Origin: Rotaria sp.
Taxonomy: Eukaryota
Assembly (NCBI GenBank): GCA_905330235.1
Contig: CAJNUA010000634.1
Span: forward strand, 1-42,105
Length of the DNA: 42,105 bases
Reading direction: 5' to 3'
Shown here: positions 9,554 to 37,877 of the stretch, piece by piece
Numbering within the stretch: the first letter of the stretch is position 1
Layout of the letters: each line of letters starts with the position of its first letter
Program-made: the position numbers and the translations under genes
Notes under the pieces: generated by a model
Told to the model about the DNA's origin: nothing
Databases searched by the model: none
What the model saw: the letters and a program-made list of their open reading frames with translations, nothing else

Positions 9554-9626
9554 CTACTTAACAAAGTGACAGACTAAAATAATGCAGACAGTTACTAGGA
9601 AAAATTAACTTTCATAAGGAAATTCA

Positions 9627-9980
9627 AAGCGCTTCTCTTAAAGTTTCACCAGGATATAATGGAAATGGTTCTTTATAATCTTTATTCAATCGGATTTCTA
9701 TATCACCATGTAACAATTTTACTTGGCCATTTTCATCCAATTGAACTTGACCAATGTCGTTTTTCACAACGGGATTTTCGACAACACAATAGTGTCTCGG
9801 TGGTAAGATGATCATTTTTTCTGGCCCTAGAGTAATTGTCTCATTGTCTTGTTTAAAAAATGTTTTCGGACCAATTTCCAACCGTGTTACCCCTGTATTT
9901 TGATCTAATACGTGAATATAATAAAACGATAGGATGTGATAGACGGGGCCGGTTTGAGATGGTAAACTTTCCGAAGACAT
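9627..9980 (-). CDS. MVP: Major vault protein (MVP), N-terminal coding exon (start ATG at 9978-9980; ORF-track start at 10013 is a TTG)
   Basis: The translation MSSESLPSQTGPVYHILSFYYIHVLDQNTGVTRLEIGPKTFFKQDNETITLGPEKMIILPPRHYCVVENPVVKNDIGQVQLDENGQVKLLHGDIEIRLNKDYKEPFPLYPGETLREAL matches the vertebrate MVP N-terminus (…YHYIHVLDQN…VGPKTY…DNE…PPRHYC…NP…G…LEIRL…PFPLYPGE.L…). The 3' boundary is unresolved because TGA follows REAL and there is no GT donor. Confidence 0.75.
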
Positions 9981-10523
9981 ATTAATGCCAAATTTTCGTT
10001 CTAGAATAAACAAACAAAAGAAAAGAAAATCGGATGTAACTGTCAGGGAAACTCGTTTTTTCAGAAGGATGACTTGTTTCTTTCAACTATGCTCGTCAAC
10101 ACATTGCACAACTGTTATGAAACAACTCTGCTGAATCAAAACAGTCATGCACGTAATTGCAAGAGCTTTTGTAATATTCTATTCTGTGCTGTCGCCATAC
10201 GTCATAGAATACGATAGAAAAGAATTTTTCTTTTTCTTGTCGACGTAAAACAGAGATTGTTTTGAAAGTGAATAAGTCGAAATACATGCTGCTACTTTCT
10301 GTTAGATTGAATGGTCACACTGTTTTGCCTCTTGAGCCGTTTCATACACCTCGTTCGTACTGCCAAAGACCTTCTCATACTATAACTACAAGACAAAATA
10401 TTGGTTCTAAGGAAATTAGAAATATTTGACAATGTGTGAAACTCGAATGTCACTACATCTATTTGTCTTTGCCCTTTATTGCAAAGAATTGAAATACAAA
10501 ATCCGTCTTATTCCTTCTCTATA

Positions 10524-10570: not shown

Positions 10571-11219
10571 ATTGGTGAAGGCCTTGTCGATGAGAATGAT
10601 GTCGAACAAGCGCAGAAACATCGATTGTATATTAAAAAAAATTGAAAACAAGAAAAACAATCTTACAAAAAGAAGGCCTCAAAAGTATTGGCGTCAATTG
10701 AATTGCATGACTTCTCATAGATCTTAATCGTAACATAAGACCGCTTCACATAGACAAATTTTATGGCAATATTGCTTTTGCTTTGAAACATAATGTAGTT
10801 CTGAGAGACATATTCTATTTGAACATCATAACATATGAAAATTCGAAGAAAACTGCTAAAATTCTATTCAAGAGTGAAGATTCTAAGTTTGGAGATGAAA
10901 TAAAAGCTTACAATTACATTTAAATCTTCAATCGTAAACCAAAATAAACCATGAAGAAACAAAAAACATATAACATAATGTGATCATCGAATTTAAATCT
11001 AAAGGATTGTTCAGAGAATTCCTATGCTCGAAGCTGTGGCTGTAAATGTTGATGTAAGTGTGTAACTCTGGCTTTCGTTTACATTTTTGTGGAAAGTTGA
11101 CTTAACTTGTGAATTAATATTAAATGTATTTGCACTAAAATACCGAATATGACGACAATATAATGATGACAACAAGAATCGATAAACTTATATCTTATTA
11201 TTTGATTTCGTATTTTAAA

Positions 11220-11296
11220 GTGTGAGTGTGGGTGCGGACATAAAAAGAGAAAGATAACAGCCACAACCACACGCAACATCCCACCCACATCCACTC
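11220..11296. repeat. GT-arm / AC-arm foldback element (family copy)
   Basis: gtgtgagtgtgggtgcgg … ccacaaccacacgcaacatcccacccacatccactc. Confidence 0.55.
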
Positions 11297-12050
11297 TGCC
11301 TTTATTTTCAAATCATGCTCGTTATTTCTGCAATACATGTAAGACAAAACGATTATTGATTGTTAAATACAGTTATCCTTGTGAATTTCTCTTTCATGAA
11401 TTCTAGTTTCTCAAAGAAACAATTATGTCGAAAGATTTTTTTACATAGTAGAGTCTCAATGAATTGAATTCTCTTTTACATAATCGGCTTAAATACTTAG
11501 CCATTAGTCTTTCTAAAGATGATAAGATTCTTTTTATTTACAGGTATCTTCTTTGTACAAATCTGTATCTCGTGAAAATAATATTCGACATATTTGTGTC
11601 TTGGAAGGACTAAGGTTAATGAAGAGTCAGGGTTTAGACATAAATCGATATTATTTTATGTAGCATAATATAACTTTGTGCCCTTTCGTTGTCAATATGA
11701 AGACGAGTAGTTTAAATAAATTCGATAATCTGTCTTTATTTTAGAGTAATCTGAAGTATTATTCACGTAATAAAAGTATTTTCATACTGACTGGAAGAAC
11801 CATTTTAAAGTTTTTTGAGTTAATTAAAAATCGATTGATGAGTCTAGAATTTTATTTCGTAAATGAGATATTCGATGTTGATTATTTACAAATGTTCTAA
11901 GTTTATTAGAAAGTGTTATTAATTTTAACATAGAATTTCGTTTATCCGTAGAAAGGCTCGATAGCTTGAATCATTGATTAATAGTCGAATGTAGACTAAT
12001 GTCCATTTAAAAAAGAAGAGCTGTGACCATTTTCTGAATAACTTTTCATT

Positions 12051-12531
12051 GGAATGACATAGAGACCTGCGATTTTGACCGTTGGAAAGAGAAGATGAAG
12101 ACACATCGAATCGTATATTATAGCATTTTCCGGCAATTTTTATTGAGTGTTTTTAATCGAGATTTTGACAAACCGTGCATCGCGCTCAATCACCACAGGG
12201 AATTTTCGATTTTTAGGAGTGCATCAGAACCGCCAATCGAAGATCTACAAAACTGCGCAAGGCCTAAATTTTTAACTTGTAACGTTCAGGAGTTAAAGGT
12301 ATTTTTACTGTGGGCTTCTACATGATTTTTCGAGAAAATTAGACGAAATCTCCACTTTTTCGCTAAATTTTCATGAAAATTTATAGTACCAATCGAGCCC
12401 AAACATACACATTTAAAAAAAAATTCAATTGAAAGTTTCGAAACACTTGTCAGTAAAATCTGTAATATATGATTCGATGTGTCTTCATCTAACTTTCTAA
12501 CGGTGAAAACCGCAGTTCTCTACCCCATTCC
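12051..12531. mobile_element. MITE-like / foldback element, ~480 bp, with ~70-bp terminal inverted repeats (~85-90% identical)
   Basis: Left arm ggaatgacatagagacctgcgattttgaccgttggaaagagaagatgaagacacatcgaatcgtatatta. Reverse complement of the right arm ggaatggggtagagaactgcggttttcaccgttagaaagttagatgaagacacatcgaatcatatatta. The interior is more GC-rich than the flanks. Confidence 0.55.
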
Positions 12532-15500
12532 TATGAAATGTTATTCGAAAAATGATCAGGACTCTTCTTTTTTCAAATGGGCATTAGTATTTCGTCAAGA
12601 GCCGGTCGATGCTGGTCCAATGCCTTTTATTCGTAGAGATGCATCAATCGACTTCTGCTCATATTTCTCAATGATTTCTTTCACAGGAGTAGACTTATAC
12701 GATGATAATGATGGTGTGTTAAAATTTATTGTTGTATGTTTATGTAAGCAACGCTTTGACAAAGATCGAAGCCTGTAATAAACGATATTCAATGGAAAAT
12801 GAGAGAAAAACATTTATACACAGAAAGATGATCATAGTGAAAATACTTCTGAAAATATTCGATGCTGTCATTAAAACTTATTTGAATGCAATCGTTATAT
12901 TGATACGAATCCTATTTTAGCATCTTTCGATAACAAAACAATATTTTCTAGAAATAAATTTGTCGGACAATTTTTTTTGCTTGACAAATAATAATATAGA
13001 TTTAGTATAAGATATTGATCGAATAAGATTATATTTTTTGTACTTCTGTCAAGGAAAGAAAATTATAATTTTATTTTGATAAAAGTTTGTTTAATGAATA
13101 TTGTTTGAATTAGCTGCTTAATTGGTGATATTAATTTTTTTCGAATTTTTTCACGTTTAATATGAACTTCACATGAATGATACCAATCAGAAAACCTTAC
13201 TATCTCAACGTTTTGGAAATTTCATATATTCAATTAATAAAATGAGACTACTTAGACATTACAATGATATTTTTCTTGAAAAATTAACAGGACTAACGGC
13301 ATTAATGACTACTATGAGAGTTTTGAACGTTGATGATGTTGCTCAATATTAACCGTTAGGTATAAAATTCATAGTGCGGCGAATAACAGATGATCATTCG
13401 ATTCAAAAAACCTCCGATGGCTACAAATGATCGTTTTCAAACCATTTGAATATTGATGAACATTATTCAACTTTTCAATATTGTGATCATAAACGTTTGA
13501 TATTTCTTTATAATAAGTTGCTGCATTTATTGCCAATCCCATTTTGTAAAAGAAGTATAACATTAATAATGATGATGTTTCTAATTCCACAAATTTGTAT
13601 GTATGTATTCAATGTTAGATCAATGTCATAGTGAATGTTCATGCCAGCTGTTCCAACCTTTCTTTGACATGTCTGGTCATTGTTTTCTTTATCCTTGCTT
13701 CTATGATATCCTTCTATGTTGTTGACTACGTAGTTCATGATCAACTATGATTCAATCAACATATCGTTTCTTCCACATTATCACCTTGTTTTCTCATTTA
13801 GATTGTTATGATTTTAGAGGTTCAAAAGTTTGCAAGAGAAAAAATGAAGGCAAGTAGATGATAATAATAGACAAAGCACAACACTCAAACTTGGTTGATT
13901 CATTTCAATAAAATTTACACTGATGAGAAGAAGAAGAGAAATCAAAAGAATATATTATCATATATTCTGATAACATAATGCGCACTACATATAATTAGTG
14001 ACATCATTGATATACGATTTATAGGTAAAAGATAATAGATAGAGTAGAGGAAAGACAAGAACAGACTCTTGTATGGTGGTATGCATATATAGTATTCTGA
14101 TCATTATGACTGGTTATGAAGGTGTTACCTAATCATTTTATTCAATGTTTTCAGTTTCACTCATGTGCTCATTTTTGTTTACTGTTTGTACAGCATATAT
14201 TAATACGTGTTCAAGTTTTATTTGATATTAATTATGTACCTGTGTTTTTGATGAATTACTCATTGGTTTGATCTATAATTGTAATAAATAAAGAAAAAAA
14301 TTGTAGACGTATAGATTCAGGCATTGTGTATCTTTATAGTTGATATATCTTGACTTTATGTTTTCTCTGTTATTGGGTCGCTCTAACTTCGTTTTTCTTA
14401 TATAAATGAGTGTTTTGTTTCATAAGGAATTGATTTCTAATATACAGAAAGAAAATAGAAGGTAATCATATTCGAATCAGCTAATTAGTAAAATTTTTTA
14501 AAATCTACTTCTCACATAAAGTAGAAAATGAAAAATAAAAGTGTTTCTTTAATTTAGAACTTTCCTGAGACTTCTTAATGTGTAAGCTGATTGTGAAACT
14601 ATTAACAAATCAATAGAAACCACTAATATCCACGGAGTAATTTTGTAGCCCTACTCTATCTTATCTACCTTACTACAATCGACACAAGAGAAAAGATTTT
14701 GAGTAATATTATGAGCTAGATTAAAGTTTATATGCCTTACTATTTAAATTCATCGGAAAAAGTACTCAATAAAAAAAAGATAAAGATACATACTATAAAC
14801 AAGAATGAAACCAAAAAATATGTTACTTATAACTTCTATTGTATTTTCTTATCGAATTCACACAATTGATAAGTCTCTAATTAAAATATTAATACATTGA
14901 AAATCATCGTTTTGTATTATTAATAGTTATTTATTAGCAAGAGCATTTTAGTCTGCTCTTGGTGCTAGATGAACAAGATGAGATGAAATCATTTTGATAT
15001 AACACTAAGAACAAGATTAGACATAGAACAAACATCTTCATGCTCATTAAACGATATAGAACTTATAACTTAATTTTTTTATGTGAGGAAAAATTCTGAA
15101 TAAGAAGTGTAAATATTATTCTTCTATAATTATGTTGTATGTTTTAACTGTATCACATTCTCCAGTATAGCGTTCGACTTTGCCTTCGGAAGTTCATTCT
15201 TGAATTTTGACTCTCATCGACCTAAAAAAAGGTCTGATCCTAACCTGTAGACATTTCTAATAGCAACAAAACTGAGAAAAGATTTTCAGATAAAATGATA
15301 CAATATATCTTGACGTGGTACATTCCGTTTTTGTTCTCCGTGAGACTACGCTAGAATGTATCGAAACAACGTGAACACATACTTGTTAGTTTTGAATAGT
15401 CATATTCTTTCTATTACGAACGTGTAGAAGATCTCCGATGACTTTAAGTAAAACACTGTTGTTATTACATGTTTCTATTATATCGTGTTCGTATTGTATC

Positions 15501-16383
15501 AAGACATTTAAGAGTACATCCATGACAAATCATCGACTTAACTAGAGAAGATATTTATAACTTTTCCAGTTGTTAAGCATTTTGTTCGAATTGATTTTTC
15601 TTATTTCTTCCTTAAATTACACAAAAAATTCATATTATTATTGCCCATTACTTCGCTAAGAAGTTCGTTTTTCTTTTTCTTCAGTCTCACCGATAAAATT
15701 TGATGCCAACAAAGCATAAATCATTTTTCATTACCACATGCAATTCTTAAAGAATATATTTATTCGCCTTCCGAACTGTTCCATTTTAAATCTTTCCTTA
15801 TAAAATGTTTTTCTTTTTCTTTTCTAATACATATAGACGCTTGTATTTCTCTCCTTCCTGACCTTACAATGTAATTACAGCAGAACGAAAAAGACACATT
15901 CTCAAGCGTACACGCACTGAAGAAATGACAGTGAATCCTATATAAATATTTTTCTAAAGACCTATTCATCTATGTGGTAACAGTAAGAGGTAAGAAGTGA
16001 ATGGATTGATTAGTGAATAGATTTTCGTTGACGTTATCTATTCAGAATGAGCTTTTATGATAATGAAACGCGTTTTTATCTAATTTTAAATTAGAAACTA
16101 ATAAATCATAAGAGTAATTATAGTCCAATTGTTGATAAGTTTATACATATGACACCAGTTCGTACATTATCTAGTGAGTCAAAACATAAAAAAATCCGAT
16201 TAAAATTGAATTTATCTTAGATTCCGTTTGCATAGGTTCAGTACATTCATCTTTAAATTAGCGGCGTTTCTTATACATATTACCGGTAAATAGTTCTTGA
16301 ATGTTGAACGCAGAGATCTATAACTTCAAGGTTTATTACCTGTTTAGCGTTGACTTTATTGTCTAAATTCTAGATACTTCGTC

Positions 16384-16746
16384 ATGGATGCACGAACATC
16401 GGAATCCAGTAACGACAATGTCGTTCCATGCGGAGTCGATTGGAGCGATCGTGCTCATCCTTCATCTTACTGCTGGTTTCCTCTTACATCCAATGATTCA
16501 TCGACTGCTCCGTCATGTGCATACGGTTCATGTGCAAAGTGGAAGCAAACAGGTCAATCAGCACTTCTACAATGTCAATCATGTAATTTGATAATGTATG
16601 CACATCATTTGACTAATTCATCAACGTCAAATAATGATTCTATTCAATCGTGTCGTCCATCATTTGTCGATAATACAGAACAAGGAAACTCGCTGACGAA
16701 TAACAAAGATAGTCCATTGAAATTCGATCAACATTTTTGGTCTCAT
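16384..16746 (+). CDS. Diacylglycerol kinase, N-terminal region with a degenerate C1-like Cys/His cluster (tentative exon; possible donor CAT|GTATCA at 16747)
   Basis: Cys/His-rich segment HPSSYCWF…CAYGSC…LLQCQSCNLIMYAHH lies upstream of, and on the same strand as, the kinase catalytic exon. The C1 pattern is incomplete. Confidence 0.35.
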
Positions 16747-16804
16747 GTATCAACACTTCCAAAGCCATGAATGCATGCATTGCCAACCAACATCTATGGT
16801 CAGT

Positions 16805-16990
16805 GGTGGTCCGACTGGGGGGTGGAGGAGGTGGTGTCGGGGGTGTAACACCCACCCCTCCAATCGTCGAAATTGCCGTTTTTTTTCAAGCAAAATCCAA
16901 AGATTTTCTTGTGTTCTGTTTGAAAAAATAATAGTACATACCCCAAATATTCTCAACACTTCACTTCCCCTCCTCCCCCTCCCAATGTTG
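16805..16990. repeat. G-rich / C-rich inverted pair inside the putative DGK intron. A local hairpin (16808-16856) has a long-range C-rich partner at 16962-16982.
   Basis: ggggggtggaggaggtggtgtcgggggtgtaacacccacccctcc, then ~100 nt later cacttcccctcctccccctccc (reverse complement gggagggggaggagggg). Confidence 0.5.
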
Positions 16991-17428
16991 GTTGATTCGG
17001 GTCACCCCGGTCTATGGTATCTTTCTTAGATATTATCGATCAGATGAAATCGATGATCAGTTATATATCAGGAACTTTGGATGACGATCTGTCAGACGCT
17101 TCACATGGTCTCGTTTGCTTATGATGTTTCCGATGTTATCATAATTCGTGTTGGGAACAACTTACTCCTCAAGATAAGCTTCAATATGACTATGGTATCT
17201 TTCAGTAAGTTTCTCACGATATTTCTTCTAATTAAGTCGAGATAAATCAGTGTTCGTTGATGATTTGCTTTAAGATTTTCAAAAAAATTCCTTTAGTTCA
17301 GCGAGATAAATCATTCTAATTTTTGAGTTCATCTAGATGTTATCCACAATAATTTGATTGAACTGTCTTTGCCAATTGACATTAACATTTTGATTTTCAT
17401 CAACAGAAATATTATTGTTTGGCCACAG

Positions 17429-17911
17429 TGGTTCAGTCGTTCAAGTGAATCTTCAACTGATTTCAAAGCACGAGCATTTTCGTATTCAACCAACAATAAT
17501 GCTGAGTCAAACTCATTTCCATATACGCCTGTTCTTGTTTTTGTAAATAAACGCTCTGGTGGTCAAGTTGGTGAGAACATATATCCAGAACTCTTACAAA
17601 GACTCAATCCGCGTCAAGTATTTCTTCTAGAAAACAATGTCACAATTACTTATGCTCTGGATATCTACTCTTCGTTACTGAACATGCGTATTTGCATGTT
17701 CAGCGGTGATGGTACTGTTGATTGGATTTTTAGCTGCCTAGCCGAGGCCTATCCATCTAGACATAATCTTCCAGTAAGCATTTGTCCGTTGGGAACATGC
17801 AATGATCTTTAACGTGTCTTGGCTTGGGGTGAACAATACGATCCGAAATGTCTTTTTCGTACACTTCTACAGACTTCACAAGCTTAAGTTGCTGTACTTG
17901 ATCGTTGGGAA
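17429..17911 (+). CDS. Diacylglycerol kinase catalytic domain exon (DAGKc), containing two in-frame TAA codons at 17810-17812 and 17885-17887
   Basis: Motifs PVLVFVNKRSGGQVGE, LNPRQVF, FSGDGTVDW, ICPLGTCNDL[TAA]RVLAWG and LDRWEVQ match the DGK motifs PLLVFVNPKSGxxQG, LNPxQVF, GGDGTVGW, LPLGTGNDLARxLGWG and DRWKVQ. Acceptor …ccacag|TGG at 17429; candidate donor GAA|GTTCAG at 17912. Confidence 0.7.
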
Positions 17912-18002
17912 GTTCAGCTTGAAGAATTCGATGCAGAAAAATTAGCTTTGATAACACAACAACATCATGAAAGTGGTTTCAATATCAGCCGAAATATTTC
18001 AG

Positions 18003-18827
18003 CCATTACTCAACCCTCCTAAATTCATTCAAGAAACCAATCGATCTTCGTATGAAAACTATCAGAAATTGCCGAACATACGCTTTATTAACTACATGAG
18101 CTTTGACTTAGATGCTGCTATTGCACTCGATTTTCATGTTGAACGTACACGTGATCCATCGAAATTTTCGTTACCATTGAAAAATAAATTCATGTATGTG
18201 AACGAAAGTTGCAAATATTTCGATGATTTTGCTCGGACACAAATGTGAAATTTAGGCTCTCATATTTGTTTGATATGCGATGATCAAGATATCCCTGATA
18301 CAGTACTTAATTGTCACACATTGGTCATACTCAATATTCCAGGCTATGCATCTGGTACAAATCCATGGAGAAAATCATTGAGAAATTCAATAATGGATCG
18401 TGTCAATCAATTATCGACTCTTGAATTAAGCAGTACTTTTATCAACCAAATATCCATGAGGTCACTTGATCCATTGAATTGTGCAGGTGATACCCAAGAA
18501 AACAACGAATTAGAAAGTTTGGACGATAGGGATACGGATCAACCAGAGAGATTATCGACAACACAAACAACTTCAAGTAGTCGTTTTCAACCACAAAATT
18601 TTGGCGATCGAAAAGTTGAAGTTGTCGGATTGAGTACTACACATATGGCTGCAATCCATGCTGGTTTTCGTGGCAATCGAATCGCTCAATGCAACCGATT
18701 GTGTATTGAACTTCGTTGTCCAATGACAGCACAAATGGATGGTGAACCATTCTATCTTCCTACACCGGTAGCTGTCAATATTAGTCATGTTGATCAAGTA
18801 CTTGTGTTAAAAAATGAGAACAAATAA
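18003..18827 (+). CDS. Diacylglycerol kinase accessory domain and C-terminus (DAGKa), with an in-frame TGA at about 18246-18248; ends VLKNENK-TAA right after the kinase core, as in type III / epsilon
   Basis: NYMSFDLDAAIALDFHVERTRDPSKFSLPLKNKFMYV matches [23 protein letters not shown]…NK.VY. LVILNIPGYASGTNPW matches IIVLNIGYWGGG. RCPMTAQMDGEPFYLPTPVAVNISH matches [21 protein letters not shown]. Candidate 91-nt intron 17912-18002 ends (tttcag|CC). Confidence 0.7.
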
Positions 18828-18828
18828 A
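18823..18828 (+). promoter_or_regulatory. AATAAA polyadenylation signal overlapping the DGK stop codon
   Basis: caAATAAAtgac lies at the end of the DGK ORF. Confidence 0.3.
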
Positions 18829-19951
18829 TGACTCTGCACATGTGCATGTTTATTCACTTATATTATATTAATCATTTTTCTTTAAGTTAATCTGCCATTT
18901 TTCTTCTACCATTTTATGATTCAAAAATTAAAAACTTCTTGGGCTCTAAACGAAGTCCATTATTGATTTACAATTATGAAAACTATTGATTTTTTCTTGA
19001 AATGGAATGTTTGTTAAACTAGAAATCGTACTGTCCAAATTGGAATGATCTGAACTATACGAAAAGCTATTTCCATCGAAAGCTAATGATTTCGAAAAAG
19101 TGTATATATATCTGAAGAGAAAGTGCACCTCAAAATCCACACCCGACCGTGTATGAAACTCAAAGGTTGCTATTCTAAGCAAAGTTGAAATATATAATTA
19201 GTCATCTATAAATGAGAGTGAGTAGAATAGATTTGTTAACATATGCGTTCTTGATAGGAACTTGCATCGCCTTTCACTTCACCGTGGAGTACCGACGATT
19301 AATCGAGTTGACCCTCTTCATTGTGAGCGATAGAACTTTGCCATATGACAAACTTAACAAATATTTTGGTCGAAGTTTTTGTTTTATAGATAAGTCTTCA
19401 AGAATTGGATAAAGTATCTATTTTTCTCTGAAAACATTCTTGACCGATCTATCTATTCTCGTCGTAAGAACAAATATTTATAACTGTTTTCCAAACTCTC
19501 ATGCACTGCTGCCAACCAATAGGTGTATCTCCATATTCTTTTCCGCAAGGAACATAAGAGAAAACAAAATTTCTGAACGTTGCTATTCGAAATGACAGTT
19601 TACTCATTTTTAGTGCAACATTTCCAACGAACTCGATCTTAGTGTGATAGTTATAGTGTATCAGCACACGTATGATAACTTTTTATGATAATTCATCGAT
19701 ATTTCTCGACCAACTTCTAGATTTCTACACCAATAACTCTTACCCTTAGCTAATGGTCTTATACTAAATCCCGCCTCATTTATATCTGCCACCACTCAAA
19801 TAAAGCTCCTTAAATAAATAAAAATGTATTGTTACGTCGAAGAAAATATAAAATTTTTATTTCTAAATGAGAACAGTGCGAATGTAAATTTGTTACAGGT
19901 AAAACGTGTTTAAAACAAAATGACATCAAATTGTTTTGTTTATGAATCACT

Positions 19952-20427
19952 TCAATTTTTTGAAACGTATTCAGTAAATGGCGCTTCTATTTGTAAGTGT
20001 CCATCGTGTGTTAAATGAGTTTGCAAATGATCAGTTTGTGTGCCCGGTGGAAGGGTAATCGATCTGTAAAAATAAGTTTTTTCTAAATGTCGATTATCCT
20101 TTGATATGTGTTCACCTTGTATAATCAGATCATTATTTTTGACTGACACTTTAATGTGTTCAGGACGATAATTTTTCATAGGTATAGACATTTGTATTTT
20201 TTTTTTATTTTCTTCTGCATCAACAACTTTTGGTGCAAAAGCTGATGTATGAAAATGATGATAATTAAATGATTGATCACGATATTGACCATATGGAAGT
20301 AAATGATGGCTATGACTTGCTTGTGATGATGACTGAAGATAACGTTGTTCATGTTCACGATTAAGTAGTGGTATATCCACAATCAACAGATTGTTTGGTG
20401 TTACATAGGATACTAAGTGATCTGCAT
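19952..20427 (-). CDS. p40-like small heat-shock protein, exon 2 (second alpha-crystallin domain); stop at 19952-19954, AATAAA about 19860
   Basis: A 58-nt intron (20428-20485, GTGAGA…tttag) joins HAG|DADHLVSYVTPNNLL… in frame. Second alpha-crystallin domain: HIKVSVKNNDLIIQGEHISKDNRHLEKTYFYRSITLPPGTQTDHLQTHLTHDGHLQIEAP. Confidence 0.75.
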
Positions 20428-20485
20428 CTAAATATTAAAATTAAAAATATAAATTAGAAATTTTGGACAATTTTACACATCTCAC

Positions 20486-20876
20486 CAGCATGTTCATAAA
20501 CAGTTTCAGGTAAATCGTATATTTTTTGTTCTTTAGTATTCTCACTATTACTATGATGATGCTTCTTTTTCGCTTCTATAATTAAAAGACGACCTTCAAT
20601 TGTTGTTTTTATAGTCTCTGGATCAAAATCCGCAATGTCCAGTTTTACACGAAATCTTTCTCCATACGTTGGTATTTGTAATGCTGGCGCAACCTTATCC
20701 TTGTGTTCTTTTTTCAGTTTTGGTTGATTAATCCAACGAAATGATATTGGTGCACTTGAATTAATATTTGTCCATGGATCAAATAATTCAAAATCATTTC
20801 CGAAATTATCAGAGTCAAATTTCTTATCATTTGAACGACGACGATAGCGATTCACTGGTAATGATGACATTGTCAT
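20486..20876 (-). CDS. Small heat-shock protein with two alpha-crystallin domains (trematode p40 egg-antigen-like), exon 1
   Basis: First alpha-crystallin domain: FRVKLDIADFDPETIKTTIEGRLLIIEAKKK. The exon ends …VYEHAG with donor G|GTGAGA. Confidence 0.75.
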
Positions 20877-25070: not shown

Positions 25071-26490
25071 TTATCGATCAAAATAAGTGAGAAAAAACAA
25101 AATGGCCCAAATAAATCCAAAAAGAGTTCCTTCTGCTTGAAACATGGACGAGTTGATTACACTAGTTTCGAAACATTGAAAGAGTGTCACCTGAATATCT
25201 ACGATTGTACGATAAAGTTCTTTCGACGAATCTAGCGGTAAAAATGTATCTCCATTAGAGAGCAAAATCACGCTGATAGTGTTTTTCTCATTGACCAGCA
25301 TCAAATGAGTCATGCCTTGTAATCCACCACCATGTCAGACATATCGATGACCATTGCTCAACGTTTGCCAATGCCAACCAAGTCCAAACTTTAGTGATTC
25401 ACATAGTCCTGTAGAAGTATTGCTTGAATCTTCAATATAGTAAGGGATGAGACCACCGCCAACTATTGTTCGCATTTCGGCAATGGATCGAGGAGTAAGT
25501 AACGAAGATTCATTATTGATAAACATACGAAGAAATACAGATAGAGAACGAGATGGCATGCGAAAGAGGCCTGAAGGATAAGTATTGAGGCTGAAGAATG
25601 GAATTTACAGCCCTGTTGGAAGATTTCCCTAGACAGATGATTAATTATTAAATCAAATCAATGCTACGTAGTAAAACTATTGACGCGCTTACAGGAATCT
25701 GTGTGATATTCAGTTATGGCATTATTTGGTTCCATGCTTGAAGAAAGGATTCATTGAATGCATTCGTATAATGCTTAACAAAATCGTTTCTGTCTTCAAA
25801 ATCGGAGAGACGAAAATCTGTCTTGTGAATATCGATGCCCAACGGTTTCAGAATATTTTCTTTGACATGTTGATCACAAGGCGTTTTTGTTATTCGTTCG
25901 ACGACTAATGCAGCCAGAGATGAACCTTCATTTGAATAGAATGTTACACTGCCTGGTGGTTTTGGCAACCAATTCGACGTATCCGGATTCAGATATTGGA
26001 AACACATATCGGCCAAACTCGCTTGAGTGAATGCAATATCATCCGGTTGAAAGTAAGTGTCCAACGAATAGTTATTGACAGCGACTGAAGCTGAGTGTGA
26101 AAGTAATTTACGCAGAGTGATCGAATGAGAAGGTTACTGCGGATGAAAGATTCTTTAGTGAGGTTCCGACAAATATTGGTTGGTGTCTGTGTTGAGATCA
26201 ACAAGTTCTTTCTCGACAAGTTGCATGACAGCAACTCCAATAAATGTCTTTGAGATAGAGGCGAGAATAAAAATCGACTTATCGACATCCATAGACACTG
26301 CTGGTGAAAGAGACTGGTAACCAAAAGCTTGTTCGTAGAGTATATCACTAGCATTGACTACAATAATTACGGCACCTGGAATATGAACTTTATTGAAAGC
26401 CTTCTCGATAAATTGTCGATTTGGACAACTTGAACCATTGGTGGCAGCAATAATAAAACTAAGAACATGCAGACGCAACAATAAACACAT
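25071..26490 (-). pseudogene. LACTB / class-C beta-lactamase-fold serine hydrolase homolog, interrupted by 3 in-frame TAA and 1 TGA and one frame change (candidate pseudogene, or recoded)
   Basis: Ordered motifs on the minus strand: FILASISKTF (S-x-x-K), …YLSEPH[TAA]RIFHPQ[TAA]PSHSITLRKLLSHSAS…, YSNEG (Y-x-N), KFGLGWHWQ…GHRYV[TGA]HGGGLQG (H-x-G box), …VNEKNTISVILLSNGD. Stops at 26155-57, 26134-36, 25714-16 (TAA) and 25335-37 (TGA). Confidence 0.55.
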
Positions 26491-30927: not shown

Positions 30928-33900
30928 CTACCAGTTAATTGCAGCAGCGAGAGAAATTTTTTCAGCATCAAGACAATTTTCAATAATAATAATAAAATAA
31001 GTTTCACGTTCTTGTTTTCTCCTATCATTTACAATTGATCGACACGTATCTAATTCATTTTGAGAAATATTAAAACGAGTATGTTCTTCATTAAATGATC
31101 CACTAGTGCCTTTGACTTCAAAATAACAATATTTAGTTGTTGGTCCTGATATATGAATAAATACTTGACGCGTATCTTGTAACTCGAAATCGAAACCAGT
31201 CGAATCATTTATATTATCACGACATTGTGGATAAGTAACAAGACGTGATGATGAACGCCAATTTTTTGTTGGTGTTACATCAACCGACCCATAATGATTT
31301 TGTAGATAGACGAAAAAGAAATGTTCGGCATTTTGACCAATACGTATTTGTTCGATACCATCTACAATTGATGGATCTCTCCAAATATTTGCCAAGTTCA
31401 CATTTCGAGGGATATTACTTTGTGTTTTTACTAGACTTCGATAAATTGTATCGTCAGCAATCCGATCAACAGCAACTGATTCTATTGTAATTTTTTCGGG
31501 ATCTTCTTCAATAGTACAATATTTTCCTATTGATATAATCATCGATTCAATAGAATGATGATCAGTAGGAAAAAGTATATCAGCAAATGAATAAATGCTA
31601 GATTCTGTACTAGCGACAGATGAGAGATATTCAGAACGAAATGCTGAACACGTGCTTATTTGTTTTTGAGCAATTGATTTTGCTTCTTCGAATGATTTAT
31701 GATTTCGTTTATGTAATAGAGTAGTTAAAGCTGATGTTGCAATAATTGCTTTTGAAGCATCGCCTCTTTCGTTACCAGTACAAAGAAGAATAGTTTTATT
31801 AAATATCCAGAAAGGATAATCAGTAGCAATCATATAACGATGAGTTTCATTTGTACATTCTTCATTGATCGAATCAATAACGAAAGAATCAGATAGAAGA
31901 ATAGATACACTAGCATATTTAGCTGTGATTACTTCCAGTTTTGGATCATTAAGAGTATTACAAAATATATCTGTTAATTGTTTGAGCGAATACTCAAGAT
32001 TATGATTTTGATGTATCCATTGAATTTTACTTCGTCGTTCAACATAATCAATACCAAATGCCGCTAAAACTAATGGACATGTACGAGCAATGGCTGGTAA
32101 AATAAAATAACGTTTACCAGTATCTTTAGATAAGTTTTGAATAATCATGGTTTCTAAACATGCATACATAATAGTATCTATCTTTTTTGTAATAATTTTC
32201 CGATCAATAGTAATAAGACCGATTTGTTTTTGTTGTGATTGTATGCGAGTCAATTTTTTTAATTGTTTTGATAAAGAATTACATGTAAAACTAAAACGCC
32301 ATTCTAAATCTTCTCGACTACCGTATGGAGCTGTTGGATGTTTACTTATTATAATAGCATTATATAAATCACTATTTGTCCCTTTATTTTTAACACATTT
32401 CCATATTAAATCTTCTAGATACTGATAAAGAGTTATCATTAATTCTGTACCATAATCGCTTAAAGTTGTCTTACAATCACCAAAAGCAATGAAATTATTT
32501 TTATCATGACTTGCGAAATAAATTGTGGTATAAATATAAGTAATACTAATTGTAGATGTCGATAAGCAACCTAAAAGATGAAAAAGATCTTTGAATTGCC
32601 AATAAATTTGATTGTTTAATGGTGAAATCAATTGTAATTTAAGATATTTAGAAATAAGTAAAATACCACGATCATGTTCTTCATTATCTGATTTAATTAA
32701 AAGATCTTTTAATAAATAAAAATTCTTTTCATCAGGAAGATACAATTGAAATGATGAAAGCAAAGTTTCCATATTCAATTCAGTATGTTGTTGACGAACG
32801 TATAATTGTAAATGGCTTAACCATTGAACATACAAATCAACATTTGTATTTTGTTCATTACTTAATAATTTTAAAATTTTAACACATGTAAGAAGATTAT
32901 ATTCAGTACAGATACCAAGACTTTTTGCTAATGCACGACAATGATGTGGAATAGTAATATGTGGTAATGATGGTAAATCAGGAACAATCATTTCATCAAA
33001 TGTAGCTGAAACTGGAATTATTTGTTGTTCGGTGTTCGAATTATTAACAATTGAAAATTGTCGAAGACACTCTTTTGTATTTTCTGTTTGATAAGAAAAA
33101 ATGAGTTCACCTAATTGTGCACATTTTTCATCTGTAAACATAGTTAATGTTGGTAAAAGTCGTAAATTAATGATAGAATAGTTTGAAGGAAGACGAATCG
33201 ATGGTCGTTGACAATTCATTTCAAGTAGAAAATATTCCCATTGAAGAATATCAAATAATTCATAATGATGAACATTACGATAAGGAAAAGAAATAATTGA
33301 TGAACTTATTGGATCTATAAATGATCGAATATCTACTCCTAATATTGATGGTAATATTGTATTTTGAATTGGAATAAGATTGAATGTTCCAGTAACGGGT
33401 ACAAGAAATGGAGTGAATTTATTTAATTTATCTAAATGAGATTTTAAATAGAATAAATCTTGCCATATTTCTTCGATTAATTGAATATTTGGATTAGAGA
33501 TAAGAGATGAAAGAGCTAATTGTAAATGATTTTGACGAATAATTTCAATCATTCGTTCTTCTGTAAGAAGTTGTACATGTTTTGATGTGAGAAGAGCAGT
33601 TCTTTCAAATTTCGAACAGTATCGTAAAAGTGTAAGTTTTGTTTTCCACATTCGAAATTGTGGATTATCACTAATGAAAAGAAGTCTAGGAGTATTATCA
33701 TTGACTGGCAAATATTGTCTGTAATGATGATTTTGAAAAAGAAAAATTGGCTTTTGTAAAATTTTTTGAGAAATTTCCGGTGTCATTATTTCAGTTACAT
33801 GATGAAAAAACAGGGACCACCATTGTTCATCTTGATTTTGTGTCCATAATCGAAATTGTTGACGAAAATCATTCGTTGTTGTTGTTTCTTCTCGATTAGG

Positions 33901-34073
33901 AAAACAATTTAGTATGTCTATAATTGAAACTGATTGTATTTGAAAAGATTTTAAATGCTCAAATGTTAAGAAAGAAGTATTTGAATCAATCACATGAATA
34001 TTAGCACAATTATATAATTGTTCATTTGATACAAGTAATGATAGATCTTTATTAAAGTAACGAATTGTTTTAT
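30928..34073 (-). CDS. Sacsin / NO VEIN-like protein, exon 4 (1048 codons, stop TAG 30928-30930). Its C-terminus (…FEVKGTSGSF…) may be a restriction-endonuclease-like (DUF3883-type) domain.
   Basis: A 57-nt intron (34074-34130, GTAAAG…tatttag) joins in frame (…DIRT|D|KTIRYF…). One uninterrupted 3.1-kb open frame in 67% AT DNA. Confidence 0.8.
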
Positions 34074-34130
34074 CTAAATATAATTATTCGGTTTTTTTTC
34101 AAAAGATTATTTTCAAAAATTTTTCTTTAC

Positions 34131-35196
34131 CTGTTCGAATATCAAGTAATACTGAAATATATTTCTTTATTAATAGATTAATATTATCAATCATAACAAG
34201 CCACCATGATGAATGTTTTCCTTGATGTATATTTGATGTTGGACAATATCGATTGATATCTTTTCTTAAGTCTATATCATTTAATAAAACATAAAAAAAA
34301 AGAGTTGATAAATGATCACGAATAAACGTATTAAATGGAACATTTTCTCGAACACTTTCACGATTTGTAACTAATTGAAAATCAGCATTGAATAAAAAAT
34401 TAAAACCAAGATCACAAACAGGTAAACCGGTATAAACTGTACTTGTTAAATCATAATCTTTTTCACAAGGAAATGCTAAAATCAGTCGTGTGTTTGGAGA
34501 CTGTCGTTGTTCAATTGAGTTTGGTATATTAATATAGCATGTATACACTCGAAAAGTATTATATCCTGTTGATGTATGTAATTCCATGATAGATCCAGTA
34601 AGATTAAAAAATGTAAAATCTTCAAATGTCACATTTGCTTGTTCTGCTAATTTTGTTGGGCCTATGTGTTGTTTCTCAATCAGTGTTTCTTTATTTTGTC
34701 TTTTATCAATGATTTCAAGTCTTTTTAGTTGACGCATGTTAAGTAAAACACATGGATCGATAGCTTTGATAACTTGATCAAGAAATAGATTAGCTTCGGA
34801 TGTTTGTGCTTCTAATTTTAGTGGTAGATAAAGATGAGTATGTTGAACATTTCTTGAGATTTGATTGGAAATACAATCTGGAATATCTTGATCTGTTATC
34901 CATAATGGCGTAATATATGACATAGCATCAAGGCCTGGCACTTGAAAACAAAATTTCCAAGCATGTGAAATAAGCATTGGTTGATTTGAAGCAGCAAAGA
35001 CTGATTTGAAACCAACACCTTTTTCACCAATATGTTCTTGTAAATTTGTTTTTGTAGTAACAGATAAACTACAAATAGCTAATACATCTTTTGCTCGAAA
35101 ACCTTGTTCATTATTTGATAAAAGTATATAATTATGATTAAGTTCAATACGTAAACATGGAATGATTGAATTATCATAAAAATTATCTTCAGCATT
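34131..35196 (-). CDS. Sacsin / NO VEIN-like protein, exon 3 (starts NAEDNFYDNS…; carries the G-box IGEKGVGFKSVFAASNQP)
   Basis: NAEDN…IGEKGVGFKSVF is the diagnostic GHKL/Hsp90-like ATPase signature of sacsin repeat regions and NO VEIN proteins. The exon ends with donor ACAG|GTAAAG. Confidence 0.8.
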
Positions 35197-35249
35197 CTAT
35201 AGATAAAAAAAGAACTCTATTGAATGCGAAAAAACAAAGAAAAATCAAC

Positions 35250-36363
35250 CTGAATAAGTTCATGTAAAAAATGTACAGGTGAACTATAAAGATCAGAGCC
35301 AAGATTTTTCAGTGATCCACAAATAGATTCTCGCATATCATTATATGTTGTTCGTCGATGACAAATTTCTCGAATACATTTTTCTGCTTGTTCTTTAGTA
35401 ATTTCATTTGGAGAAAGATTGTGCAATTCATCAATTATATTATTCTGATTGTTATTGTTATTAGAAGTAGAAATAGAAGCTGATAATTGTTGGGATTCTT
35501 CATTTTTGTTAATAATTGGTCTTAGTTTAAGGTTATCTATTTCTTGAGCCATTCGTCTATTCTCTTTGCTAAATTGATCTCTTTCTGATTGAGTACGTTG
35601 TAATTCATTTCTTAATTTTGTTAGTTCTTCATTAAGTGATTTGTTTTCATTTTCAACTTGTTTATAATTATGTTGAAGTTGTTGAATATCGAGTTTTTTC
35701 CATTCTTCATCGAATAATGTTTGAATTTGATTTTTTTGTACTGATTTCTCTTCACGTAAACATGTCTCTTGAATTTGTCGATATAAATTATAATATGATA
35801 CAATCAAATCTTGAGAAATTTGTAAAGGAACAAATGATTCTATGTTCTGTTCAATTGTTTTTGTATCAGGTTGTTCTTTTTTCTCTTCATCTTGTATATC
35901 ATCGATAAGTTCGTTTCGTTTAAATTTCGATTTAATAAATTGTGTATAGAAACAAATGCATGTATCTATCATATTCTGATCACTACTTTTCATTTTCAAC
36001 AAATAATGAATAGCTCTGGGAACAGTCCATAATAGACTATCTTCATTTACTAATGCCAAATTAACAGCAGGTGAACTGTAGAGAATAATGGGTGTTAGAA
36101 GAGCACATAATTCACTTATAAGCATTGAAGTAAAACGAGATTTTTTTTCTCCTTGAATCCATTTAGTCATGCGAGGATGTGTTAACACTTCAATCACTTC
36201 AGCAAGATTGTGTACATCATCTTCTGTTACCTGTGTACAATGATCTGCTGAGCCATAGAACAATGATGCAAGAGTGCTAATGGAATATCGTTCAAGCAGA
36301 ATGCCTGTATGACGAAAGCAATCTCTTTCGAAAATATTTGATTTCGATTCTTCTTCACTTGAT
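35250..36363 (-). CDS. Sacsin / NO VEIN-like protein, exon 2 (coiled-coil segment; ends …HFLHELIQ)
   Basis: The exon ends with ELIQ and donor CAG|GTTGAT. A 53-nt intron (35197-35249) ends ctatag|. The splice rebuilds the sacsin-type N-box ELIQNAEDN. Confidence 0.8.
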
Positions 36364-36423
36364 CTAATGACGAAGGAAATAATCAATTAATACAAGTATA
36401 TCACAATGGATAATTATACTCAC

Positions 36424-37877
36424 TCAGAATTATTGTCTTCTTCTTCTTCTTCTTTCCATAAGTTTTTTAGAGTTTGATATGGTGAAAGAAGCCATTTGAT
36501 TGCATCTAATATTTTACGTGCTACTAATGGATCATAAGTCAAATAAGTAATCGCATATTTATGTTCGCTTTGATCACCATCTAGAATAGTTGAACAAAGT
36601 CGAAGACCAGATAATGTGAGAGCATACTGTCGTTGACTGATAAGTAATAAACTTAATTTGTATATTTCAGGAGTATAATTAAACAAGTCATGACGAAAGA
36701 AAAAATGAGTACCTAATATACATATAACTAAAACTATTGAATAGATAAAAGGCGTTAATGCATCATTTTGGTTTTTAAGTAATTGAAGAGCATAAAGTAT
36801 TAGTTGAGCAGCGATTGTATTTCCATGCTTGAAATCATCAGGATTAAGACCGAGTATCAATTGTTTTTTATATGCTCGTAATTCCTCATCATTTATACGT
36901 CCAAGTTCATCGAGAACAAGATAAACAATTTTACGAGCAGCATTAGCAGCTGTATCTGGTTGCTGAAGATCGTTAAGAAGTGGTTTTAATCGATCACTGA
37001 TGACACGATGATAGCACTTTTGCAAATTATTTCGAACATCTCGTACATCACGTGCTGTTCGTTGGCGAAATGAAAGTAGTTTTGCCATATCAGAACGAAG
37101 TTTATTATTATTAGCTAGATACTTTGATGATTCATTATGAAAAAGGCTTTGGATTAATTTTTCAAGTGAAGTATCAAGTAAAACAGTTTGTTCGTCAATA
37201 AGTAATGTATTGTTTTGAAGATATTTTGAAGAGTTTAAAAATGAGAAGAAACTCTTAATTCGATGATCATATACAGGATAAGTATTTGTTTGATAATCTT
37301 GAATAGATTGACTTTGAAATAGCCAATTTTCGAAAAGTCGTTGTTCATTAACAAGAAAACAAAGTACTTTCAATGTAAAATTCAGTAATGATGAGTTTGA
37401 CTCATTGAGTTGAAGAAATATGTTAATAAATGCCGGTTCTAAACATACTGATCCACTGAGCAGAATCCAACTTGCTGATTTATGTTGTATTTCTTGTTCT
37501 TCATTTGTTGGATTTAATAATTCAAGAATATTCTTCCGAAATTCATCTACCTGTAAAGAATTTGATGTATCAGTAATACCAATTGACATAGAATTGAATC
37601 CATTACAACATGTTGGTGTCAGAGTAGTTGACATGGATTGATCAGTTGATGATGACTGATTTTGACGGCTAAAGAGTTGATCACTGATATCCATCAATGT
37701 TTCAAACTTTGTTAGATGAATATCATTGGTATATGAAGAAATTTCGGAATAATTTCTAAGTAAATATTTGATTCGTTGATACACTAAACTGACTGGTGAT
37801 CCTGTAGTGATGATAAAATTTATTCGACCTGGAGGCTTTCCAAGTAACTTGCAGCATGAGCAAAGCAAGTCTGTCAT
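36424..37877 (-). CDS. Sacsin / NO VEIN-like Hsp90-type ATPase-domain protein, exon 1 (ATG 37875-37877; an acceptor-like tttcag directly upstream means the true start could lie further 5')
   Basis: Long open frame. Ends …EDNNS with donor GA|GTGAGT. A 60-nt intron (36364-36423) gives an in-frame join to exon 2. Confidence 0.75.

Follow-up and report, generated by a model that had tools for sequence, protein, structure and literature searches.

The diacylglycerol kinase (DGK) gene within the 42,105 nucleotides of Rotaria sp. DNA analysed here (the window) is almost certainly a non-processed, duplicated pseudogene undergoing neutral decay in Rotaria sp. 'Silwood-2'. It has an intact relative in the genome, keeps its intron and the collinearity of its flanks, and has been released from much of the constraint under which that relative evolves. 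Pseudogenisation had been the default explanation in an earlier sequence-only reading, and the presence of an intact close paralogue together with a dN/dS near 1 bears it out. The same reading had found it odd that the gene carried stops only and no frameshifts. This oddity disappears on comparison with intact relatives: the locus contains two frameshifting insertions, a transposon-like insertion and four nonsense substitutions. Loci of this kind are already known, and the present one is predicted to yield no functional protein product.

Gene structure and lesions

The window is 99.3% identical to locus L001 (GCA_905330535.1) of Rotaria sp. 'Silwood-2' across positions 7956-28828 (20.9 kb), and the top protein matches of its gene are Rotaria DGKs. 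A DGK-like gene had been proposed at 16384-18827, and this extent proved exact; the gene lies on the plus strand, with DAGK_cat and DAGK_acc as its Pfam domains. In a frame-corrected translation of the locus, DAGK_cat (PF00781) scores 66.3 bits against a Pfam cut-off of 23.6, and DAGK_acc (PF00609) scores 117.6 bits against a cut-off of 27. With both domains above their Pfam gathering scores, the locus is a eukaryotic DGK homologue or derivative. Pfam found no domains other than these two, which is compatible with the epsilon (type III) subtype, a class marked by an N-terminal hydrophobic helix, two C1 domains and no further regulatory domains. The intact copy, used as query against PDB sequences, matched nothing.

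The gene has two exons separated by a single intron (Table 1). Exon 1 was delimited by alignment to the intact orthologues L002, L004 and L009, and the intron was mapped in L002 through its exact translation to protein P0001, as well as by alignment with the window. Translated conceptually without its insertions, exon 1 is collinear with P0001 and P0130; taking all three insertions out of the gene leaves one frame collinear with the intact 672-aa orthologues, which served as the reference for lesions.

Table 1. Coordinates of the DGK pseudogene, its lesions and the collinear segment in the window
Feature	Position	Strand	Remarks
Segment collinear with intact Silwood-2 locus	10974..19661		~85-93% identity; visible extent of duplicated block
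Exon 1	16384..17204	+	N-terminal Cys-rich, C1-like region; split by 4-bp and 218-bp insertions
4-bp insertion ATGA	16767..16770	+	Frameshift; creates in-frame TGA 16768-16770; in all pseudogene haplotypes
Target-site duplication, left copy TCTATGGT	16793..16800	+	8 bp
Transposon-like (MITE-like) 210-bp insertion	16801..17010		Imperfect inverted-repeat ends; complementary G/C-rich arms
Target-site duplication, right copy TCTATGGT	17011..17018	+	8 bp
TGA for Trp (TGG)	17122..17124	+	CLWC motif of C1-like region; window and L008 only
Single intron, GTAAGT...AG	17205..17406	+	Retained; position as in intact orthologues
Exon 2	17407..18827	+	DAGK_cat and DAGK_acc; three stops and +1 frameshift
AGC (Ser) for first Gly of GGDG, G299S	17702..17704	+	Gly in 96/96 homologues
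TAA for Ser (TCA)	17810..17812	+	Haplotype A only (window, L005); TCA in haplotype B and all orthologues
TAA for Gln (CAA)	17885..17887	+	Common to all pseudogene haplotypes
A-run with one extra A, +1 frameshift	17990..17992	+	Common to all pseudogene haplotypes
GAC (Asp) for Gly of SFGLDA, G433D	18105..18107	+	Gly in 90/90 homologues
TGA for Trp (TGG)	18246..18248	+	Common to all pseudogene haplotypes
Ancestral stop codon TAA	18825..18827	+	

The three stops described in exon 2 lie where they had been placed, namely a TAA after GTCNDL, a TAA before VAVLDRWEVQ and a TGA after ARTQM, and the open reading frames 17967-18248 and 18270-18827 do belong to one frame. The accompanying claim that no frameshifting indel separates the stops is false. 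Codon starts place stops 1 and 2 in frame 2 mod 3 and stop 3 in frame 0 mod 3, because an extra A, found in no intact orthologue, lies in the run between stops 2 and 3. Nor is the frame otherwise continuous, as exon 1 also contains the 4-bp insertion, the 218-bp insertion and a further TGA. The uninterrupted reading frame of a functional DGK is therefore lost to four nonsense substitutions and to insertions of 4, 1 and 218 bp. A micro-intron was considered for the frame change near 17990, where candidate GT..AG pairs span only 16 or 30 nt, and was rejected because the orthologues differ by a plain single nucleotide in the A run. When 120 substitutions were simulated at the observed spectrum, 6.7 ± 2.4 stops were expected, so the four stops are consistent with neutral expectation; the excess of stops arising via G>A and C>T is attributed to the GC-to-AT-biased mutation spectrum of an AT-rich genome.

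Within exon 1, the ATGA insertion aligns to a gap in L002 and L004 and is present in L001, and the 128-aa ORF that ends at it occurs on seven contigs of Silwood-2 assemblies. Of the 218-bp insertion (16799-17016), 210 bp are the element itself and 8 bp a target-site duplication, the length of duplication expected of a hAT-like MITE. The duplicated TCTATGGT is single-copy in the orthologues, and both flanks of the insertion map to overlapping positions of L002 (10406-10413). Two sub-terminal arms of the element (16816-16831 and 16969-16984, 16 nt) are 88% complementary (inverted repeat I7), and its terminal 14 nt pair at 10/14 positions as judged by eye. The element is missing from L002, L003, L004, L009, L010 and L014, and every pseudogene haplotype has it, the haplotype B version lacking 8 bp internally; neither the window nor the DGK loci compared contained a second copy. 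Reading the insertion as an intron (GTCAGT at 16799 to TTAG at 17029) would remove 231 nt without restoring the frame, with a stop six codons later, and this candidate was rejected because the gene becomes collinear with its orthologues once 218 bp are excised at the perfect 8-bp duplication.

The gene had also been called motif-perfect. The window copy in fact deviates at 8 of the 89 columns that are conserved at ≥95%, compared with 0-2 in intact homologues. The invariant glycines of GGDG and SFGLDA in the catalytic domain are not kept, a further change (S455L) falls in a column that is Ser in 90/90 homologues, and in haplotype B the codon at 17705-17707 in the GGDG region reads GAT (Asp) as well. 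The reported Gly-to-Cys change that turns GTGNDL into GTCNDL is present (TGC, 17798-17800, plus strand), but is not decisive alone because the same column varies among homologues (Gly in 88/96, Ala in 5, Cys in 2). The degeneracy noted in the C1 cluster is a trait of the family: the intact paralogue also scores below the cut-off (19.4 versus 26.5 bits, in a match to the second half of C1_1). Beyond this, the C1-like region of the window is altered by the TGA, by a Cys>Tyr substitution and by both insertions of exon 1.

Haplotypes, intact paralogue and selection

The pseudogene exists as two haplotypes, A and B, that are ~1% apart, and the copies compared derive from at least four assemblies. 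Five lesions are common to all pseudogene haplotypes (the 4-bp insertion, the 210-bp element with its 8-bp duplication, CAA>TAA, the extra A, and TGG>TGA). Full-length copies (window, L001/L007, L005 and L006) have all five, and L008, which departs from the locus at 17821, has those lying upstream of that point. Other lesions vary: only some Silwood-2 assemblies carry the TGA at 17122-17124 (window, L008) and the TAA at 17810-17812 (window, L005), haplotype B has a private TGA at 17431, and in L006 the terminal stop TAA has become TTA (18826), which results in the 291-aa model P0123. Variants at 17124 and 17420 occur in all four combinations across the window, L005, L001 and L008. Haplotype switching in collapsed short-read assemblies is the trivial explanation for this mosaic. 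We consider it a long shot that the mosaic records real recombination or gene conversion between homologues of a putatively asexual bdelloid at a neutral locus or, separately, that the dead copy is still transcribed, its product acting either as non-coding RNA or as a short peptide from the N-terminus. Transcriptomes exist for Rotaria species other than Silwood-2, which the list in PMC7943196 does not include.

An intact paralogue, for which the sequence-only reading had advised a search, is present in the assembly of the same individual. Assembly GCA_905329745.1 holds the pseudogene on CAJNSZ010000715.1 and the intact P0130 gene on CAJNSZ010002745.1, at a gene-wide nucleotide distance of 0.083 (~8% diverged). 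In Silwood-2, the intact 672-aa copies are P0130, P0132 and P0142, which are near-identical variants. Collinearity between the window and the intact Silwood-2 locus spans at least ~8.7 kb, non-coding flanks included, and ends at ~10974 and ~19661; with the intact locus of Silwood-1 it reaches further left, from 9118, and takes in a vault-protein gene. A beta-lactamase-like ORF also neighbours the gene, and a homology search with it gave short fragments only. One scaffold, CAJNWK010000734.1, places the dead and intact copies side by side, an adjacency we do not trust because this mis-joined scaffold exits the locus at 17821 via a 68-bp inverted piece and an N.

Synonymous distances (dS 0.13-0.19) are about equal among the pseudogene, its intact Silwood-2 counterpart and the orthologues of two other species; at 0.129, the dS that separates the dead from the intact copy in Silwood-2 does not exceed the between-species values. 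A basal pseudogene clade in an NJ tree was not trusted, as dS shows that the extra distance is nonsynonymous; the duplication therefore cannot be ordered relative to the speciations. The two copies could stem from a segmental duplication or from retention of a very divergent homologue.

Selective constraint on the window copy is relaxed relative to its functional relatives. Intact lineages evolve at ω ~0.22 (77 synonymous and 61 nonsynonymous changes), compared with ~0.74 on the pseudogene stem (15 and 40) and ~1.2 on the private branches that follow the haplotype split (4 and 18). Both classes of pseudogene branch differ from the intact lineages by Fisher's test (stem, p = 4e-4; private branches, p = 1e-3), and dN/dS between the two pseudogene haplotypes is 1.2-1.3. 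Because ω on the stem is below 1, the dead copy was probably functional during part of its past.

On this reading, a block of at least ~8.7 kb bearing a two-exon DGK gene is present in the genome as two diverged copies. The P0130 copy (672 aa) remains intact under purifying selection, and the window copy has lost constraint and is decaying neutrally. Judging from their distribution, the five shared lesions probably arose first, before haplotypes A and B separated, and each haplotype would subsequently have gained private nonsense and missense changes.

Alternative readings

The long stretches of DGK frame that can still be read, the two domains above Pfam cut-offs and the intact splice sites of the intron would all be expected of a working gene in which in-frame TAA and TGA are translated, whether by programmed read-through, by insertion of selenocysteine or under a variant genetic code. 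Such decoding is extremely improbable here. It would leave a frame that is also broken by two frameshifting insertions and the 218-bp insertion, as well as a mutated invariant glycine in GGDG, and ω is ~1 with no sign of purifying selection. The stops, moreover, occupy Trp, Gln and Ser codons for which the intact paralogue in the same genome has TGG, CAA and TCA. Orthologues read the same three codons, so the stops, which had been put forward for a conservation check, are not conserved, and two of them are present in only some assemblies. No SECIS or other Rfam element matched at E ≤ 1 within 15500-20500 on both strands. The test for recoding that had been urged is thus negative, and a variant genetic code was rejected on the standard codons of the paralogue, the lack of an Rfam or SECIS match and the frameshifts. 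Exon 2, which forms one long uninterrupted coding stretch, might suggest that a DGK mRNA was retrocopied to give a processed pseudogene, but retention of the parent gene's single intron at the same position, and of non-coding flanks collinear with the intact locus across ~8.7 kb, refutes that origin.

Errors of sequencing or assembly that make an intact gene look broken deserve mention because the assemblies rest on short-read data from single individuals caught in the wild (PMC7943196) and at least one scaffold at the locus is mis-joined at an N. However, the five shared lesions appear in every full-length pseudogene copy, the seemingly private lesions of the window each recur in one other assembly (TAA 17811 in L005; TGA 17124 in L008), and the intact copy assembles separately from the same individual. 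Since no lesion is confined to one assembly, each being found in two or more independent ones, assembly error is excluded as an explanation for them, and we assign this reading a negligible likelihood. A different view accepts the pseudogene and concerns only its origin, holding that the dead and intact copies are very divergent homologues ('alleles') of a single locus in an asexual lineage, or were joined by hybridisation, with no segmental duplication. Collinearity that includes non-coding DNA at ~85-93% identity, its leftward extension in Silwood-1 through the vault-protein gene, and a dS no larger than that between species are compatible with this view. We nevertheless think it unlikely, as the pseudogene already has its own haplotype pair, near-identical variants likewise exist of the intact copy, and collinearity with the intact Silwood-2 locus comes to an end on both sides. 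Paired haplotypes A and B alongside P0130, P0132 and P0142 fit two loci with two homologues each.

Annotation and relation to known systems

In the annotators' gene models, P0017 for example, an invented intron removes the TGA at 18246. The public models at this locus, one of 128 aa and one a 'DAGK_acc' protein of 270/291 aa with such an intron, are artefacts of predicting genes on a pseudogene and should be annotated as fragments of one. Beyond annotation, the locus has little significance. It is a clean neutral marker that combines dated shared lesions with haplotype-specific ones, so that, given phased data, it could serve for mutation spectra or recombination tests among Silwood-2 individuals.

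With eukaryotic DGKs of the short type III or epsilon-like architecture, the window copy shares the order of DAGK_cat and then DAGK_acc after a Cys-rich N-terminal region, along with recognisable GGDG and GTGNDL boxes. It differs from them in its broken frame and in the mutated invariant glycines of GGDG and SFGLDA; the intact rotifer copies too have only a sub-threshold, insertion-bearing C1-like region. Read-through, selenoprotein recoding and stop reassignment likewise involve in-frame TGA or TAA codons inside conserved protein segments. Unlike the stops of those systems, the window stops are not conserved, fall at Trp, Gln and Ser sites and occur alongside frameshifts and an inserted transposon, with no SECIS match, no purifying selection and an intact copy that uses standard codons. 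The closest likeness is to non-processed pseudogenes of expanded gene families. In these, as here, the genome still has the parent gene, both the intron and the collinear flanks survive, nonsense substitutions are mixed with a transposon insertion and with small indels that shift the frame, dN/dS climbs to ~1, and lesions vary among haplotypes. Bdelloids are degenerate tetraploid, putatively asexual animals. From such pseudogenes the window copy shows no substantive difference, and what sets it apart is its bdelloid setting, in which two haplotypes ~1% apart are decaying independently.

The diacylglycerol kinase gene and its lesions

The AT-rich eukaryotic DNA of the window (G+C ~27-39%) holds a diacylglycerol kinase (DGK) gene whose span, 16384-18827, an earlier sequence-only reading had given exactly. 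The frame-corrected translation of 17408-18827 matches more than 120 diacylglycerol kinases in a homology search, all from bdelloid rotifers or environmental contigs, with a Rotaria sordida protein (P0001, 672 aa, 86% identity) as the top match, and Pfam identifies DAGK_cat as well as DAGK_acc once the frame is corrected. Intact 672-aa orthologue loci from R. sordida (L002, L003, L011, and L013) and Silwood-1 (L014) were aligned to the window, together with a more distant Silwood-1 paralogue (L004). The intact loci reveal a parent gene of two exons and one intron. Against them, the window gene carries four nonsense substitutions and three insertion events (see table). Both flanks of the 218-bp insertion align to overlapping orthologue positions, and once the three insertions are excised a single frame is collinear with the 672-aa proteins.

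Features of the window DGK gene relative to intact copies
Feature	Coordinates	Strand	Basis
4-bp insertion, creating TGA at 16768 by itself	16767-16770		absent from all intact copies
218-bp insertion: 210-bp element (16801-17010) plus perfect 8-bp duplication TCTATGGT	16799-17016		alignment with intact copies
Nonsense TGG>TGA	17122-17124		comparison with all intact copies
Retained intron, GTAAGT...AG	17205-17406	+	alignment with intact orthologues
Nonsense TCA>TAA	17810-17812		comparison with all intact copies
Nonsense CAA>TAA	17885-17887		comparison with all intact copies
Run with one extra A	17990-17992		comparison with all intact copies
Nonsense TGG>TGA	18246-18248		comparison with all intact copies

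The sequence-only reading had placed the last three of these stops exactly, and raised read-through or recoding on the grounds that no frameshift separated them. Its third stop, however, is not in the reading frame of the first two, so that claim is wrong, and the supposed pattern of stops only is not real, as three insertions stand beside the four nonsense substitutions. Nor are the stops shared with intact orthologues, which carry TGG, TCA, CAA, and TGG instead. Recoding or read-through is rejected because the frame is broken by indels, because the stops stand at ordinary Trp, Gln, and Ser codons that the genome's own intact copy still uses, because two stops are present in some assemblies only, and because purifying selection is absent. 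A search of window 15500-20500 against Rfam families, including SECIS, gave no match at E <= 1. The number of stops is not unusual: a simulation that drew 120 substitutions from the observed spectrum, starting from the reconstructed ancestor, yields 6.7 ± 2.4 stops, compared with the four observed. Changes on the pseudogene lineage are predominantly G>A and C>T, types that include five of the six nonsense changes found across any haplotype.

Haplotypes and relaxed selection

Window 7956-28828 is 99.3% identical to contig CAJNVN010000668.1 (GCA_905330535.1) of Rotaria sp. 'Silwood-2', which makes this species the source of the window. The assemblies are short-read, and each derives from a single wild-caught individual (PMC7943196). 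A 128-aa ORF ending at the 4-bp insertion occurs on seven Silwood-2 contigs. Five aligned pseudogene copies resolve into two haplotypes ~1% apart, A (window and L005) and B (L001 = L007, and L006). Common to all pseudogene haplotypes are the insertions of 4 bp and of the 210-bp element, TAA 17885, the extra A, and TGA 18246; TAA 17811 is limited to haplotype A, and TGA 17124 to the window and L008. Haplotype B carries a private TGG>TGA at 17429-17431 together with an additional change in GGDG (Gly>Asp at 17706), and in L006 the terminal stop is gone (TAA>TTA at 18826), giving a 291-aa model (P0123). Each window lesion is present in at least one other assembly, which excludes sequencing error as their source. 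Old lesions common to all copies and young private ones are nested in the way expected of continuing neutral decay.

Haplotypes A and B are mosaic across individuals' assemblies (window 17094-17420 against L005, L001/L007, L006, and L008), and the variants at 17124 and 17420 occur in every one of their four combinations. The mosaics stem either from exchange between homologues, by recombination or gene conversion, or from collapsed short-read assemblies that switch between haplotypes. At L008 (GCA_905330805.1 CAJNWK010000734.1, 4439-4496), the sequence departs from the pseudogene at window 17821 into 68 bp of inverted sequence from this gene, followed by an N, and an intact DGK copy sits further along the scaffold. 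The junction is probably a scaffolding mis-join between two 91%-identical copies, making the apparent linkage of dead and intact copies there unreliable. Together with its perfect 8-bp target-site duplication, the 210-bp transposon-like element in exon 1 occupies window 16793-17018, and its ends are imperfect inverted repeats. In haplotype B it differs by several SNPs and has lost 8 bp internally. A search of the window and all fetched loci turned up no further copy of the element, which may represent a hAT-type MITE.

Changes were assigned to branches by parsimony, with the topology ((window, L001), Silwood-2 intact, R. sordida, Silwood-1; outgroup L004). The dN/dS comparison proposed by the sequence-only reading gave ω ~0.74 on the pseudogene stem (15 synonymous, 40 nonsynonymous) and ~1.2 on the two private branches combined (4 and 18), versus ~0.22 on the three intact terminal branches (77 and 61; Fisher tests against these intact branches, p = 4e-4 for the stem, p = 1e-3 for the private pair). 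Pairwise dN/dS between A and B is 1.2-1.3. If ω rose from 0.22 to 1 in a single step, the stem would have been unconstrained for about two-thirds of its length. Of the 89 columns that are ≥95% conserved across 96 homologues, 8 are altered in the window, against 0-2 in intact homologues; the altered sites include the first Gly of GGDG (96/96), the Gly of SFGLDA (90/90), and a Ser (90/90). The Gly>Cys change in GTGNDL is less telling, since that column is Gly in 88/96 homologues and Cys in two others.

The intact copy and its surroundings

A search for an intact paralogue recovered full-length 672-aa Silwood-2 proteins (P0130, P0132, and P0142), members of the P0001 90%-identity cluster, and Silwood-2 has further intact DGK paralogues that are more distant (e.g., P0007). 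One assembly, GCA_905329745.1, holds both the pseudogene (CAJNSZ010000715.1) and the intact gene (CAJNSZ010002745.1). Window ~10974-19661 is collinear with the intact locus at ~85-93% identity, non-coding sequence included, and collinearity ends there. We favor two loci over two divergent alleles, because haplotypes A and B form a pair belonging to the dead copy and separate variants exist for the intact one. An all-site tree makes the pseudogene clade sister to the intact-copy clade of three species. Synonymous distances among the four lineages are roughly equal (dS 0.13-0.19; lowest for pseudogene versus Silwood-2 intact, 0.129, and Silwood-2 intact versus Silwood-1, 0.126), so the duplication dates from about the time these species separated, and the data allow no finer ordering.

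Upstream of the pseudogene lies a major-vault-protein repeat exon (9624-10013 (-)). The duplicated block stops at ~19661, right before a tandem HSP20/alpha-crystallin ORF pair directly downstream (19952-20876 (-)), annotated in L001 as a single 289-aa gene. A 471-aa MULE-transposase/FLYWCH gene follows the intact Silwood-2 DGK (L009 14766-16252; L010 11169-12655) and is absent downstream of both the window copy and the R. sordida orthologue, where R. sordida has a helicase/zf-CCHC gene. Mobile elements have reshaped the flanks of these DGK loci. Further along, beta-lactamase-family (PF00144) ORF fragments in differing frames at 25714-26490 (-), for which every database homologue found is likewise short (103-182 aa), represent either a short-intron gene or another pseudogene. 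Four large consecutive same-strand ORFs at 30928-37877 (-) (1021, 292, 389, and 485 aa), for which Pfam gives nothing at E <= 0.01, probably make up the exons of a single very large gene, whose C-terminal end presumably resembles a NO VEIN/DUF3883-type domain.

Public models at the DGK locus comprise a 128-aa protein and 270-aa proteins (P0017, P0121, and P0122) that skip 'CKYFDDFARTQM*NLG' via an invented intron; these are prediction artefacts on a pseudogene. The host is a degenerate-tetraploid animal, and the window DGK is an ordinary non-processed pseudogene of an expanded gene family.
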